DNA of 64,000 bases from Thermodesulfobacteriota bacterium (GTDB taxonomy: Bacteria; Desulfobacterota_D; UBA1144; Nemesobacterales; UBA2774): NCBI GenBank assembly GCA_965216785.1, contig OZ244197.1:1728001-1792000 (forward strand). The letters run 5' to 3'. The notes beneath the pieces are model-generated. The model was not told the DNA's origin and did not search any database. It worked only from the letters and a program-made list of their open reading frames with translations. The position numbers were made by a program, and so were the translations under genes. Positions 1 through 6,770 of the stretch are shown here, one piece after another. The stretch's first letter is position 1. The number at the start of each line of letters is the position of its first letter.

Positions 1-3000
1 GACAATCTGGAGTCTGAATATTCCGATATATATACACCTGAGGTAATAGAAGCGTTAAAAGCGCTGTCAGTGTTTAACAAGGACCAGAAAATGCTGATGG
101 AAAAACGCTATTCCAGGCGCTCGCAGAGGTTTCGCAACAAAGAGAGAATTCGATTCCTCGATCCGAGCGATTTTATATCCAGAACAAACATTAAAGTGCA
201 GGACGCAAGGGACGGTAAGTTTGTAGGTACTGAAATCCCGCATGACCTTCAGAGGCAGTGGATTCAGGGCACCGGTCCTGCCGCGAAACCTAATACTTCG
301 ATAGAAAAAAGCATTCGTAACGTAGCATACGCCCTTCTTTCCGGGGCAGACGGGTGGATGTTCGACGGCGAGGACGCGCTTGGGCAGATAAGCTCCATGT
401 CGCTCGATAACCAAAGAAACCTGAAGCTCGCGATCAAAAAAGACCCTGTGTTCATGGATACCGCAGAGAAGGTGTCACGCGAGATGAACAAGTGGGCAAA
501 GGGATTTTTCGGAAAAGAGATAATCACAGATTGGAGAAGCCAGCTCGATTTTACTACAAAGATCTTTAGAGCCAGAGGGCTTCACCTGGACGACAGACAT
601 ATAAGAGATGAGAACGGACTTGCTCTTTCGGCATCAGTTGCCGACGTTGTGCTCTACGTGGTTAACAACTACAAAGAGCTTGCGGCGCAGAACTCTTCAA
701 TTGTACTTTACCTTCCAAAAATACAGACTGCTGAAGAGGCCGCTTTCTGGAACGAAATCTTAAACGCGGTGGAAGATCACCTAGACCTCGCTCACGGCGC
801 GATAAAAGTTTACGTGCTCGTAGAGCAGATAGAGGCTACTTTCCAGCTTATGGAAATCAGGGCCGCGCTCGGAAGACATTTCGCGGGTTACAACACAGGC
901 CGCTGGGACTACATAAACAGTGTGTCTGACGCAATGGCCTGGGACCCTACATTCATTAATCCAAACATCGAATCAATCACAATGACATACGGCTACATGC
1001 GTAACTATGAAGACAGGGTACGTAGAGCCGTAAACACTCCCGGCATAAACGGGAACTGCGCACTATGGCAGGGCGGTATGGAACCGAACATACCGGTTGG
1101 CTCTGAAGAGGGCGTCAAATCGGGTATGGAAAAGGCGCTTGCTGGAGCGGTAAGAGAGCAAAAAGAAGGCGCAAGCGGTAAATGGGTAGCACACTGGAAG
1201 ATGGTCCACATCATCAGACCTGTTTGGGAAAAAGCGGGTGAGGACAATCAGCTCGGGAGAAAGTTCCCTGCACTAACATATACAGACGAAGACGCGGACG
1301 GGCTGACTCTACTCGAGCCGGCGCCCAGGAGCATACGCGGCGCCAGAAACCTAATAAGTGTCGGGCTTCAGTACGGAAACGCATTCGGACAGGGATTTCA
1401 GGCAGCAGCGCTAAAGCCGGCAGACTTTTTCGGAAACGACGACATTCTATATCTTATGGAAGACGCCGCTACCGGAGAGATAAGGCTCAGCATTCTGTGG
1501 GAGTGGATTCATAAGGGCGCCCAGTTAAATGAGGCCGATAAGGAAACAAAGGTTAAAAAAGGCGACGTGTTCACGGCAGACCTTTTCGAAAGGCTCCTGA
1601 CCGAGGAATACGATAAGCTCCTCAAGGCCAAGGACAAAGACGTTCACGACGACTCAAAACCCACAACGCTTCCGATAGCAAGGGATATAGTGGAGACATA
1701 CGTGCTCGACGATGTGAAGACCCCTTGGTACATAGACCTTTTGAATATCAACTTGAACAATCACGATCTATCTACAGCGAAACTTAGAATTAAGCAGTAC
1801 ATGGATGCTTTCAGGAAGGACGGTACGAGAATTACCGAGAACCTGGACTTTTTGCCCGAAGAAGGACTCGATACGTCGCTAATCGACGAGCTTGATACCT
1901 TCGAAAGAAAAGTGAAAGAGACAAAAGAGTGGTTCGCGAATCCGCGCTTTAAAGGGGTGAGAAGGCTTTACTCCGCGCGTCAGGTCGTACAGCAGCAGGG
2001 TACGCTTGAGGCAGACTACGCTGTAGCCAGGAAGTATTCTGAGGAGTTCTACAACAGGCTCCGCGAGCTATTCGCAAACGGTGAGCAGATAACGAGCTTC
2101 GGACCCTACACGCCGGGTCAGGCGGTTGTTATGAAGCGCATCGGGATTGAGGGAATTTATCTCGGAGGCTGGGCGACATCCGCTAAAGGCTCATTGGATG
2201 AAGACCCGGGCGCAGACCTTGCAAGCTATCCGCTGAGCCAGGTGCCTGATGAAGCGGCAACGATTGTGCGCGCGCTTCTGACAGCGGATAAAAACCAGAC
2301 TTTCTTCCGTTCCAGAATGTCGGAGAAAGAAAGAAAATCCACTCCTAGAGTCGATTACAGACCGTTCATCATCGCCGACGCCGACACAGGGCACGGTGGA
2401 GACGCGCACGTACGAAACTTGGTACGCAGATTCGTCGAAGCGGGCGTTACGGGGTATCACATAGAAGACCAGAAGCCGGGTACGAAAAAGTGCGGACACC
2501 AGGGCGGTAAGGTTCTCGTCCCGGTAGACGAGCAGATAAAGAGACTAAACGCAGCCAGGTTCCAGCTGGATATTATGAAGGTGCCGGGCATCATCGTCGC
2601 AAGAACGGACGCTGAGGCAGCTACTCTACTTGACGGCAGGGGAGATGAAAGGGATCACCCGTTCATTCTCGGCGCAACTAATACCGAAGTGCCGGGTTAC
2701 AAGATTTGTTACCTCGCTATTCTAAAAAGGTTCTTCGATAAGGGCATCACCGATGTAAACGGTTTCATGCTCTACGATATATCGGAGGACGAGTACCAAG
2801 AGGCTTACGCATGGTTTGATAAAGTGGGCCTGACCGCGATAATAGACGAAAGCATTAAAGCGCTATTAGACGGTAAAGAGAGGAGCATAACCAAGCCTCT
2901 CGATAACGCAGCCACAAAGTTCGTCGAGATTTGGGAAGGCGAATCGGGGCTTATGACCTTCGCGCAGGCGGTAGCTGATGAAATGGAATTTAAAATTGAA

Positions 3001-4197
3001 GAGGGTCGCTCGCTCGATATGACCATGGATGAATGGTTTGAGTTCGCAAACCACTCCTCGTTCCACCATGCAAGAGAGCAAGCGCGCTCTATGGGCATCG
3101 AAGCTTCCTGGGACTGTGAGTTGTCAAGGACCCCGGAAGGTTACTATCAGGTGAAAGGCGGCATCGAATACGCGATAGCAAAATCACTCGCAGTAGCTCC
3201 TTACGCCGATCTGATCTGGATGGAAACTAAGACAGCAAACCTGGAAGAGGCAAGAGAGTTCGCGGAAGCGATACACGCTCAGTACCCGGACAAGATGCTT
3301 GCATACAACCTCTCCCCTTCGTTTAACTGGGACACTACCGGAATGACGGAAGAAGAGATGACGGTATTCCCGAAAGAGATCGGGAAGCTGGGATTTGTCT
3401 TTGACTTTATAACATACGGCGGACACCAGATTGACGGTCTGGCCTCTGAGGAATTTGCAACGGCTCTTCAGCAGGACGGAATGCTGGCGCTTGCAAGGCT
3501 CCAGCGCAAGTTCAGACTTCTTGACTCACCATATAGGACCCCGCAGTCACTCGTTGGCGGCCCGAGGCTTGACGGCGCGCTTTCGGCGTCTTCCGGTCGT
3601 ACTGCCACTACAAAGGCTATGGGTAAAGGCTCTACTCAGGTACAGCACATGGTTGAGACAGAAGTTCCGCCGAGGCTGCTTGAGCAGTGGCTTGAGCTAT
3701 GGACACAGCACTACGGGATTGCAGGACCTCTGCATGTAAAGCTTAGACCAAGCAGAGCGGGCTCGGAGCTCCTGGAGCTTTCGGTTCTGGATCCTGATAA
3801 TAACAAAGTCGCGGACGTTATCTTCTCAACACTCCGTGACCGTATGGGTAAGACTATGCTCAGCGTTAGGGACCAGAATACATATGATACCAATTACCGT
3901 CAGAAGAGACTTATGGCGCTAATTCACCTGTTCCTGATACACCGATATAAAGGTATGTCTGTGCACTATGTTAGCCCGACCGAAGACAACCAGATGCAGA
4001 CTAAGGGAATGAAGGCGCTCGGTATTTATGATGAAGTGAATACTGAAGTGGGTGATATTATTGTTGCAAAAGTTGACACGGATCGCATTGAGGGGCTTCT
4101 GAACCCTAATCAGAAGGAGCTAAAGAACCTCATAGCAAAGAAACCTTTGCCAAAGCCCAAAGCCAGTGCTAAAAAGACAACGAAAAGTAAAAAATAG
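1..4197 (+). CDS. Bifunctional malate synthase / isocitrate lyase fusion (5'-truncated) with ICL2-type C-terminal domain
   Basis: Frame is open from base 1. N-half has malate synthase A motifs ([28 protein letters not shown]). C-half has ICL motifs ([36 protein letters not shown]). Tail [23 protein letters not shown] resembles the mycobacterial ICL2 C-domain. Confidence 0.92.
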
Positions 4198-4912: not shown

Positions 4913-5848
4913 TTAGTCCTCCTTACTTTCGCTCTGTTTAAATTTGTATCCTTGTCGTTCGCGGGACTTAACCCTTATAGCGTGCTCGTAGCTGTCTACA
5001 CATTCCTCTTTGCAGCAGCCGCTCCTTTCAGATCCGCAGTTCTCGCACATAACAACGAGGTCGTCGCAGACCGGGTTCTTGCAATTGGTATAGCGGTCTG
5101 TCGGCCCGCCGCACCAGATACACTGTGAAATGGTGCCGCCCTCGGGGTCTACGTCCGAAACGAGCCTCTGGTCGAATACGAAGCACTTTCCTTCCCAAAT
5201 AGTATCGGGATATTTCTGGCAGAAATTTATTATCCCGTCCTTAAGCTGATACACGTCGGTAAACCCCTGCTCAACCATGTAGGAAGTTGCTTTCTCGCAC
5301 CTGATGCCGCCCGTGCAGTAGGTGACGATTTTTCTGTCTTTTATATTCTCCAATGACTTGAGCGCCTCGGGAAAATCCCTGAAATTCTCAATGTCGGGTG
5401 TTAGGGCGTTTTTAAATTTGCCGACTTTAGATTCATAGTTGTTTCTGGTATCGAGTATTATAAAGTCCTCTCCACTCTCGTATAACTCCAACAGCTCTTC
5501 AGGAGAAATATAGCGTCCTGTTTTTTTGAGGTCGAGCTCTTGGTCCATCCGGATGATCTCCTTTTTTACCCGTACTATCATTTTCTTAAACGGGCTGAAG
5601 GTGCATGTTTCTTCTTTAAACACTATGTCGGAGAACTGATCCTGCGCGGTAAGATAGGATTTATATCTTTCCATCTGTTCTTTTGAGCCCGAGAGTGAGC
5701 CGTTAATGCCTTCTTTGGCAACGAGTACTTTACCAAGAAAGCCCTGAGACTTGCAGAATTCCAGGTGCTCTGCGGCGAATTCATCCGGTCTTTGAATGTC
5801 CGTGAATTTATAAAATAGAATTACATGTATCTTAGGTTCTGTATTCAT
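4913..5848 (-). CDS. trhO: Rhodanese-domain tRNA uridine(34) hydroxylase (TrhO/YceA, UPF0176)
   Basis: LFYKF, EGING, DTRNNYE, YCTGGIRCEKA, WEGKCFVFD, Cys-rich tail; start at 5848 preferred over 5893. Confidence 0.85.
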   Translation of the reverse strand: MNTEPKIHVILFYKFTDIQRPDEFAAEHLEFCKSQGFLGKVLVAKEGINGSLSGSKEQMERYKSYLTAQDQFSDIVFKEETCTFSPFKKMIVRVKKEIIRMDQELDLKKTGRYISPEELLELYESGEDFIILDTRNNYESKVGKFKNALTPDIENFRDFPEALKSLENIKDRKIVTYCTGGIRCEKATSYMVEQGFTDVYQLKDGIINFCQKYPDTIWEGKCFVFDQRLVSDVDPEGGTISQCIWCGGPTDRYTNCKNPVCDDLVVMCENCGSERSGCCKEECVDSYEHAIRVKSRERQGYKFKQSESKED

Positions 5849-5969
5849 GATCCGGTAATTATAACTGATTGTTATATTTAACTTAATAGACATACCTCTA
5901 GTACCTGGGGTCCCGTAAACAAATATCTATGAAGGATTTATGGGAGTATTTACGAATAAAATCCGCATA

Positions 5970-6009
5970 AACGAAAAGAGGGAGCGGGTTTTGAAGCCGC
6001 TCCCTCTTT
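5970..6009 (-). terminator. Intrinsic terminator (potentially bidirectional)
   Basis: 13-bp stem AAAGAGGGAGCGG/CCGCTCCCTCTTT with T-rich tails on both strands. Confidence 0.8.
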
Positions 6010-6055
6010 CTTAAAGGAGGATGGAGGATGATTTAAGTGCGTTACTTAAGTTTCA
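5970..6055 (-). ncRNA. Candidate ~85-nt small RNA with tandem CCUCC anti-SD motifs
   Basis: Sigma70 promoter upstream, 5' hairpin TTAAGT-aacgc-ACTTAA, then CATCCTCCATCCTCCTTT, then an intrinsic terminator; no long ORF. Confidence 0.6.
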
Positions 6056-6060
6056 ATAAT

Positions 6061-6089
6061 AATATAAAGCGTGAGACTTAATATGTCAA
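6061..6089 (-). promoter_or_regulatory. Sigma70 promoter TTGACA-17-TATATT
   Basis: Minus strand reads TTGACA tattaagtctcacgctt TATATT; AT-rich UP-like region upstream. Confidence 0.75.
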
Positions 6090-6260
6090 GCAAAATTTTT
6101 TCTGTTATATAAAAATATCTCGTTTAATAGCGCTTAACGGCTCTAAGTTGCTCATCTTTCTATAATTATTATGTGTTTGTAAGTGAATATGATGTAAATA
6201 TAGCTTGATTTTATTACTTAGTTCTGATAAATATATCGGAACGATTTAAAGGAGGTTGTT

Positions 6261-6770
6261 ATGAGAAAAATCCCAAATATTTTGTATGTTTTTCTTTTTG
6301 TATCGGTCTTTGCTATAGGTTCTTTCATAGTGGAATCTCAGAGCGCGTTCGCCGGTAAAGGTGTGCAAGGGTGCGAAGTAGAAGTTGTATTGAACGCCAT
6401 ACCCGAAGGCGATACGGAATTTACATTTATTTCGACTCCAGGAGATGAATTCACCTTGGTTGAGACGGGGGAATGGTTCAAAATCTTGTTTGTGCCTATC
6501 GGCGGTTCGCTGCAAGTTACGGAGATAGTGCCCGAAGGTTGGACGCTCGTTGACGTTTCATGCGAAAGCCGAGGATCGGAAGGTTTTATCTTAATAGAAA
6601 ACGGCTTTTTCTTAGAGAGTTGCGTAGGTGATCTACTCGTATGCAATTTTGTGAATGCGCTTGAAGTAAGACCAATTCCAGCCTTATCACAGTGGGGAAT
6701 CATTGCAGCAGCAGTGGTTCTTGGGATCGTTGGTATTGTATTCTACAGCAGAAGAAAAGCTGCCGCGTAA
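6261..6770 (+). CDS. IPTL-CTERM sorting-domain surface protein
   Basis: Signal peptide; C-terminal IPALSQWG + TM helix + RRK; SD AAAGGAGG. Confidence 0.85.
   Translation: MRKIPNILYVFLFVSVFAIGSFIVESQSAFAGKGVQGCEVEVVLNAIPEGDTEFTFISTPGDEFTLVETGEWFKILFVPIGGSLQVTEIVPEGWTLVDVSCESRGSEGFILIENGFFLESCVGDLLVCNFVNALEVRPIPALSQWGIIAAAVVLGIVGIVFYSRRKAAA

Follow-up and report, generated by a model that had tools for sequence, protein, structure and literature searches.

Candidate small RNAs with an anti-Shine-Dalgarno seed in Dadabacteria and their possible co-regulation with type II secretion genes

The sRNA locus and its family

The window analyzed here, that is, the whole stretch of 64,000 nt of DNA, contains on its minus strand a compact locus that a preliminary description had proposed to be a complete sRNA gene. 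The promoter proposed there, with TTGACA and TATATT separated by 17 nt, is present at 6089–6061, where the sigma70-type −35 hexamer occupies positions 6084..6089, and the −10 hexamer, which follows the family pattern TAnnnT, positions 6061..6066. This promoter matches the consensus at 11 of 12 positions and is the best among seven promoter-like sites between 4500 and 7500, while the number of such sites is at chance level, because the shuffled sequence of this region gives 6.1 of them. The spacer contains an operator-like dyad (O1, T(T/A)AAG-N7-CTTTA; 6065..6081), which overlaps the −10 hexamer by 2 nt, and a second operator-like dyad (O2, TTAA-N8-CTTAA; 6033..6049) is located 32 bp past O1. 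The predicted sRNA is about 85 nt long (5967..6054), with both ends inferred: the 5′ end was placed about 7 nt past the −10 hexamer, and the 3′ end within the U-rich tail (5967–5977), which contains UUUUCGUUU. The CCUCC-containing tract corresponds to a 20-nt seed, CAUCCUCCAUCCUCCUUUAA, at 6011..6030, which is composed of an anti-AUG sequence, 7 nt and an anti-Shine-Dalgarno (anti-SD) sequence. In agreement with the single-stranded state proposed for it, this seed is unpaired in ensemble folds of family members, with a median unpaired probability of 0.87 in 113 members. The seed is directly followed by an intrinsic-terminator hairpin of 14 pairs (5974..6010), in which the 13 Watson–Crick pairs described before are accompanied by one G-U pair and a 9-nt loop; this hairpin was not listed by the terminator scanner, which has a loop limit of 8 nt. 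The whole RNA folds with an energy of −27.3 kcal/mol (z −5.9), and none of 200 shuffled sequences folded equally well.

The divergent gene on the plus strand (6261–6770) encodes an IPTL-CTERM-like protein, which scores 20.0 against the Pfam IPTL cut-off of 20.8. The exact 10-nt complement of the seed in its ribosome binding site (RBS), TTAAAGGAGG, was confirmed at 6246..6255, but the same sequence occurs 28 times genome-wide, and AAGGAGG, also noted elsewhere before, has 450 sites in the genome. In the target ranking described below this gene is only number 206 of 2884 (−17.3 kcal/mol), and it is not a recurrent upstream neighbor in relatives, which argues against its proposed role as a special target. 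Further upstream on the plus strand of the window (70–4197) is a gene for a malate synthase–isocitrate lyase fusion protein of 1375 aa.

The exact 20-nt seed is present in three copies in the source genome (C1:954584+, C1:1076804+ and the window copy; 6e-6 expected), each of which has its own promoter and terminator. Judged from these sequences, the three copies with identical seeds are sibling genes of one family of predicted sRNAs. The gene trhO, which encodes a tRNA U34 hydroxylase (4913..5893, minus strand; NF001133 above cut-off), is the downstream neighbor at the window copy only.

A scan of 185,579 species genomes found the exact 20-mer in 110 stretches, and among the 115 occurrences listed, in which two loci appear twice, 113 show the family architecture, oddly labelled assemblies included. 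The two occurrences outside the family are one Rossellomorea RBS and one pilQ start region (L121, the same as L381). Most of the 80 titles listed were Dadabacteria, Thermodesulfobacteriota or Deltaproteobacteria, and the remaining ones were uncultured, Spirochaetia- or Brocadia-labelled assemblies and the one Rossellomorea. The full family architecture in assemblies titled Spirochaetia or Candidatus Brocadia (L081, L086, L088, L099, L101, L107, L108 and L046) suggests that these are mislabelled. No exact seed match was found in viral contigs. BLAST gave matches, some of them marginal, in 39 of 41 genomes including the source genome, and the covariance model matched 99 of 120 phylum genomes, counts that overstate independence because the genomes are related. 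By family, the covariance-model matches covered all genomes of f1–f5 and f7 and 35 of 37 in f8, and they were weak in f6 (4 of 6) and in f9 (2 of 19), whose genomes have about 1 Mb.

Most families of the order have kept the promoter, the twin 17-bp dyads, the seed and the terminator; TTGAC was itself a selection criterion for the 113 unique members. An alignment of 60 sequences, most of them chosen by the seed, showed that the seed is near-invariant, including its non-SD half, and that the terminator covaries, with double-sided changes in eight of nine consensus pairs and 90.6% of cells paired. The consensus structure consists of the terminator only. No open reading frame (ORF) or leader peptide is conserved among family members, which agrees with the absence of a long ORF noted at the window copy. 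Divergent members carry the seed variants CAUCCUUCAUCCUCCUUU in genus g14 and CAUCCUUAAUCCUCCUUUAA in family f2. The f2-type copies (L320–L322, L090 and L129) have no dyad in the spacer, and the dyad-like sequence TTAAG-N7-(A/T)TTAA is found just upstream of their −35 hexamer. In seven f9 genomes (G107, G108 and G112–G116), where the RNA is barely detectable, the start-like motif GGAGGATGGAT-N-GATG was seen at one site each.

An Rfam scan of the window gave no match at the gathering threshold, and with E-value thresholds Rfam 15 gave eight sub-threshold matches, mostly on the terminator, the best of which scored 23.6 bits against 70. Membership in the families of cuckoo/CcsR, AbcR or RNAIII, which the preliminary description had named as known anti-SD sRNAs, is thus not borne out by Rfam. 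Neither Hfq nor CsrA was found in the five genomes searched. Dependence on Hfq was rejected on this basis, and so was a CsrB/RsmZ-type sponge of CsrA, for which the GGA repeats are also on the opposite strand. With its own promoter, an intrinsic terminator and no conserved ORF, the locus has features expected of a trans-acting base-pairing sRNA. Taken together, these data make it very probable that the locus is a real sRNA gene, and the multiple copies, the near-invariant unpaired seed and the covarying terminator are in line with the earlier proposal that it is likely a stand-alone, trans-acting translational repressor.

The heptamer ATCCTCC is also located directly before terminators at other places of the source genome (C1:2127718−, 2115880−, 2034022+, 2329956+ and 631357−), and further short sites of this kind are at 741245–741341− and 2120718–2120796−. 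This arrangement was observed at 11 of 412 ATCCTCC occurrences (8 loci), in comparison to 0–1 for three control 7-mers. Several of the sites are within the 3′ ends of genes for small secreted proteins, and by their sequence they could possibly be 3′-UTR-derived relatives of the sRNA.

A twin-dyad cassette at sRNA and type II secretion promoters

The O1 dyad was found within the promoter spacer of 112 of 113 members and the O2 dyad in 110, leaving three without it. Their spacing is 32 bp in 106 members and 33 bp in four, unlike the distance from O2 to the seed, which varies between 2 and 12 nt. The O2 sequence had previously been described as a short hairpin at the 5′ end of the RNA. This hairpin does fold in the window copy, but it is not kept as an RNA structure in the family: two inner pairs are broken in 33 and 30 of 59 sequences (one of the six pairs fell on a gap column and was uninformative), and the 5′ part folds with −2 kcal/mol or better in 46 of 113 members and does not fold at all in 50. 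Hence, O2 is better read from sequence comparison as a putative DNA operator, common to the gspC and gspL promoters, than as an RNA hairpin.

The connection to type II secretion comes from the search for paired dyads in the source genome, where the five best sites precede the three sRNAs, gspC and gspL (scores 21.5–34.7), and the next site scores 14.5. The gspC and gspL cassettes stand in front of the operons gspC-D-E and gspL-M-N for type II secretion, the GspL assignment having a profile score below its cut-off. Of 30 gspC loci, 28 carry the cassette, which in 27 of them stops 0–1 nt short of the ATG; among gspL loci, 24 of 30 carry it. The two gspC loci without it are a truncated one and one from g14 (L189). 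Of the 120 phylum genomes, 59 contain the cassette and none contains the reversed control. The scan gave no cassette in f6 (0/6), g14 (0/36) and f9 (0/19). In g14, gspC is kept without the cassette and the RNA keeps only O1, and in f6 GspC was not found in any of the three genomes searched. Inspection of 20 further cassette sites placed 15 in front of family RNAs, two in front of gspC and three in front of another locus. The latter is a non-family locus behind a twin-dyad promoter in three g3 genomes (L222, L223 and L224), which in L223 (3003–5601) and L224 consists of a type III polyketide-synthase-like gene, a class III aminotransferase gene and a further gene.

Sites placed in the promoter spacer and just past the transcription start have the usual geometry of repressor binding. 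Because one dyad is in the spacer and the other just after the start, we infer that the dyads would be repressor operators. With the same cassette at both kinds of promoters, shared regulation of the sRNAs and of gspC and gspL appears highly likely. A candidate for a lineage-wide regulator is a single-copy protein of the XRE family with a helix–turn–helix (HTH) motif (L365:10478–10894, minus strand; G000:C1:232477–232893), whose gene is usually near the pil operon. This protein is present in 115 of 120 phylum genomes, including cassette-less ones, and no dyad was detected upstream of its gene in the three genomes examined, where the best score was 3.8. Single-dyad sites near genes for LysM hydrolases and topA had no conserved counterpart among the available orthologues.

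Type II secretion has been described, in the part of a preprint that was consulted, as distinctive of the terrestrial Dadabacteria clades (10.1101/2020.06.22.165886). The RNA is almost missing from the family with small genomes, which fits this distribution, as far as it is given there.

Predicted mRNA targets

To predict which mRNAs the seed could recognize, 2884 heuristically called genes of the source genome were ranked by seed duplex energy; start codons and signal peptides were assigned by in-house heuristics. The seed is complementary to an SD sequence, a 7-nt spacer and AUG. The data showed that pilQ, which encodes the type IV pilus secretin (TIGR02515 above cut-off), ranks 6th of 2884 in the source genome and 2nd of 677 in the relative G036, and that tsaP, the gene for the partner that anchors this secretin (E 1.5e-25 to 3jc8 TsaP), ranks 7th and 5th, respectively. 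For validation we used start regions from relatives outside the selection, which were 14 of 22 pilQ matches and six of 20 tsaP matches. One of the pilQ sequences (L385, from G025) does not include the true start, and it was left out of the 13 start regions compared individually and included in the 14-sequence shuffle mean. Ten of 13 pilQ and five of six tsaP start regions were within the best 0.8% of the energies in the source genome, the ten pilQ regions even within 0.7%; the remaining three pilQ leaders reached the 3–8% level only, and the remainder of both sets together the 2–8% level. For the pilQ set and the tsaP set alike, the real seed was better than all 300 seeds with a shuffled 5′ part. 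The gain over 5′-shuffled seeds was at least 6 kcal/mol in most pilQ and tsaP leaders, while its mean for cytoplasmic genes with strong SDs was −0.08 kcal/mol. The pilQ leader of G048 pairs perfectly over 21 consecutive nt.

The pilQ leaders of two f6 genomes without the canonical seed, G057 and G029, have no SD and are at the 19th and 40th percentile. In a comparison for compensatory changes, the variant seed of G057 paired to its own pilQ leader with −17.9 kcal/mol, versus −15.7 kcal/mol for G029. G029 served as a negative control, as the covariance model finds no copy of the RNA there, while G037 carries a divergent copy. Another conserved top target, which is TIGR04551-like, keeps the same leader in G029, where this model finds no copy. 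A search of six genomes with the RNA (G003, G008, G032, G037, G031 and G078) found neither pilQ nor tsaP, so that these two cannot be the sole targets of the RNA. By prediction, the seed has the conserved complementarity to pilQ and tsaP start regions that is expected of a base-pairing sRNA, and these pairing energies suggest that both mRNAs are probably direct targets.

A c-di-GMP-I riboswitch (RF01051, 59.2 bits versus 35) is located upstream of the pilMNOPQ operon, beyond the window (L365:9123–9206, minus strand; G000:C1 ~231122–231205). In Geobacter, aptamers of this kind in front of pilM are able to sense c-AMP-GMP.

Beyond these two genes, 40 of the top 50 predicted targets in the source genome encode exported-looking proteins, in comparison to 27% in the background and to 19–34 of 50 for 25 seeds with a shuffled non-SD half. 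This bias persisted after adjustment for SD strength and after 51 IPTL-like paralogues were dropped. It was not replicated in 800 kb of G036 (17 of the top 30, shuffles 12–21, p 0.15), where strong SDs alone mark exported proteins, and it was absent in G037 and G029. The target list of G037 is headed by outer-membrane-like proteins. A class-wide bias toward exported proteins is thus tentative. The IPTL-like genes account for 15 of the top 50 targets in the source genome, where some 51 proteins end in an IPTL-CTERM-like tail. Almost all of these begin with what looks like a signal peptide and have a strong SD. Three genes for RpoD-like sigma factors (G000:C1:2322817+, 331802+ and 1131723+) rank 8th, 25th and 33rd, and these ranks are not well conserved in the stretches of relatives.

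The genes that share the cassette with the sRNAs behave differently in this ranking. The gspC and gspL leaders have no SD pairing (0.2 and 0.8 kcal/mol), a weakness equalled by only 4% of genes, and in the two gsp regions each of the 14 genes listed has a rank between 572 and 2857, which suggests that they would escape the sRNA.

Alternative readings, the proposed circuit and known systems

The most serious alternative is that the RNA is a general SD-blocking sRNA, which would be co-regulated with the gsp operons and dampen every mRNA with a strong SD; its matches to pilQ and tsaP would then be a side effect of G-rich leaders that are conserved. The abundance of AAGGAGG sites, the lack of a seed-specific export bias in G036 and the persistence of the RNA in genomes in which neither pilQ nor tsaP was found agree with this explanation. 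It is nevertheless unlikely in view of the near-invariant non-SD half of the seed, the gain over 5′-shuffled seeds at pilQ and tsaP, which is next to none for strong-SD cytoplasmic genes, and the perfect 21-nt match. A role as a protein decoy is less probable still. The RNA could titrate a protein that binds CCUCC or the 3′ tail of 16S rRNA, as the seed ends like the 16S tail CCUCCUUU and ATCCTCC precedes five other terminators in the genome; alternatively, its O2-containing 5′ end could mimic the gspC and gspL leaders, with which it has the O2 sequence in common, and titrate an RNA-binding repressor. On the other hand, O1 is the same dyad placed in untranscribed DNA at a fixed distance of 32–33 bp, CsrA was not found in the five genomes searched, and the 5′ half of the seed fits an SD, spacer and AUG rather than 16S sequence.

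The two readings in which the locus does not act as a separate RNA fare worse. The suggestion of the preliminary description that it could be an attenuated trhO leader, or more generally a read-through control element of the downstream gene, gains something from the observation that in 62 of the 74 loci with an identified downstream gene, the closest one runs in the same direction as the RNA. Most of these, however, go back to three inherited loci whose genes are unrelated (SCO at 21, a hypothetical gene at 20 and trhO at 15), and at 12 loci the gene is convergent; each of the tandem copies comes with a promoter and a terminator of its own, the seed is unpaired and there is no conserved leader peptide. 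The trhO attenuator was rejected, and a leader function in general is improbable. It is even harder to maintain that the element is a plus-strand minigene acting as a ribosome trap (SD-AUG-AUU-UAA) or an untranscribed DNA element. The plus strand does read as a perfect SD, 7 nt and ATG with a stop two codons on, but the sequence after the ATG is not conserved, all members carry the promoter and the U-tract on the minus strand, and from 5821 up to the element the plus strand shows no promoter-like site. The minigene was rejected.

The reading that we prefer is that of sibling sRNAs of about 85 nt, which would be under shared twin-dyad control and would block translation of pilQ, tsaP and other mRNAs; resting on sequence comparison, this model as a whole is somewhat better than an even bet. 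In this model, one putative dyad-binding repressor would hold the sRNA, gspC and gspL promoters, and its release would turn on the type II secretion operons and the sibling sRNAs together. The seed would pair across the SD, the spacer and the AUG of target mRNAs, and in this way block ribosome loading on pilQ, tsaP and a wider set of mRNAs that have G-rich spacers and encode exported or outer-membrane proteins. The SD-less leaders of gspC and gspL would spare these two genes. On balance, envelope investment would move away from pili and surface proteins and toward type II secretion, independently of Hfq. The strongest form of this proposal, a secretin switch of Dadabacteria in which one repressor would release both type II secretion and Hfq-independent sRNAs that silence PilQ, TsaP and many sorted surface proteins, with the SD-less secretion genes immune, is put forward tentatively, its chances being slightly below even.

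If the model is true, a small RNA couples two related envelope machines in opposite directions, with type II secretion turned on and the type IV pilus gate turned off, and a broad anti-SD RNA can spare its own regulon by means of SD-less leaders. Sequence alone here yields a family, a 57-bp promoter–operator signature, a predicted regulon and ranked targets. Among the papers listed by a full-text search of the literature, which included few subscription papers, no regulatory RNA or operator was described for the uncultured Dadabacteria or for Desulfobacterota_D, and the family was not described under sRNA control of pilQ, reciprocal sRNA control of pili and secretion, or anti-SD sRNAs and type II secretion. 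It is apparently a real and undescribed sRNA family of a known kind, whose predicted regulon is unexpected.

The closest parallel is provided by the csRNAs of Streptococcus. According to the consulted part of the study that describes them, they are sibling sRNAs under one regulator, with two stem–loops and an unpaired region that can pair with the SD as well as with the start codon, CAU being the anti-AUG sequence; their promoters contain the direct repeat TTTAAG-N5-TTTAAG bound by CiaR, and the regulon also contains protein operons (PMC3091779). Similarly, the seed described here consists of CAU, 7 nt and CCUCCUUU, it is unpaired, and the siblings and protein operons are predicted to be under common control. 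Compared with the csRNAs as presented in that part, the Dadabacteria promoters have twin inverted repeats in repressor positions, one in the spacer and one past the start, rather than the CiaR direct repeat, the terminator is the only conserved stem–loop, the phylum and the targets are different, and there is no Rfam match. The LhrC1–5 sRNAs of Listeria, as described in the consulted part of the corresponding paper, are multi-copy RNAs with a CU-rich anti-SD sequence, which repress a surface-protein mRNA independently of Hfq through three UCCC sites in loops and a linker, are tied to an envelope regulator and require the LisRK two-component system (PMC4132741). The Dadabacteria RNA resembles this account in its multiple copies, its anti-SD sequence, its predicted independence of Hfq, its predicted link to envelope regulation and its predicted surface and exported targets, while it differs from it in having one linear 20-nt seed, no UCCC in this seed and no match to Rfam. 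In the cuckoo/CcsR RNAs of Alphaproteobacteria, the part of the source consulted places CCUCCUCCC in the loops of 2–4 adjacent hairpins (PMC4615179). In both cases a CCUCC-type anti-SD motif is the main conserved sequence next to covarying stems, but CCUCCAUCCUCC is located here in a single-stranded linker before one terminator, in contrast to the loops in the cuckoo RNAs as given there. The RybB/MicA-type sRNAs, which depend on sigmaE and Hfq, reduce the production of outer-membrane and exported proteins, and the coding arm of their regulon builds envelope machinery. The predicted regulon in Dadabacteria would likewise combine a non-coding arm that lowers exported proteins with a coding arm for envelope machinery; it differs in that its promoters are of the sigma70 type with twin dyads, that no Hfq was found in the genomes searched, and that its coding arm is type II secretion.
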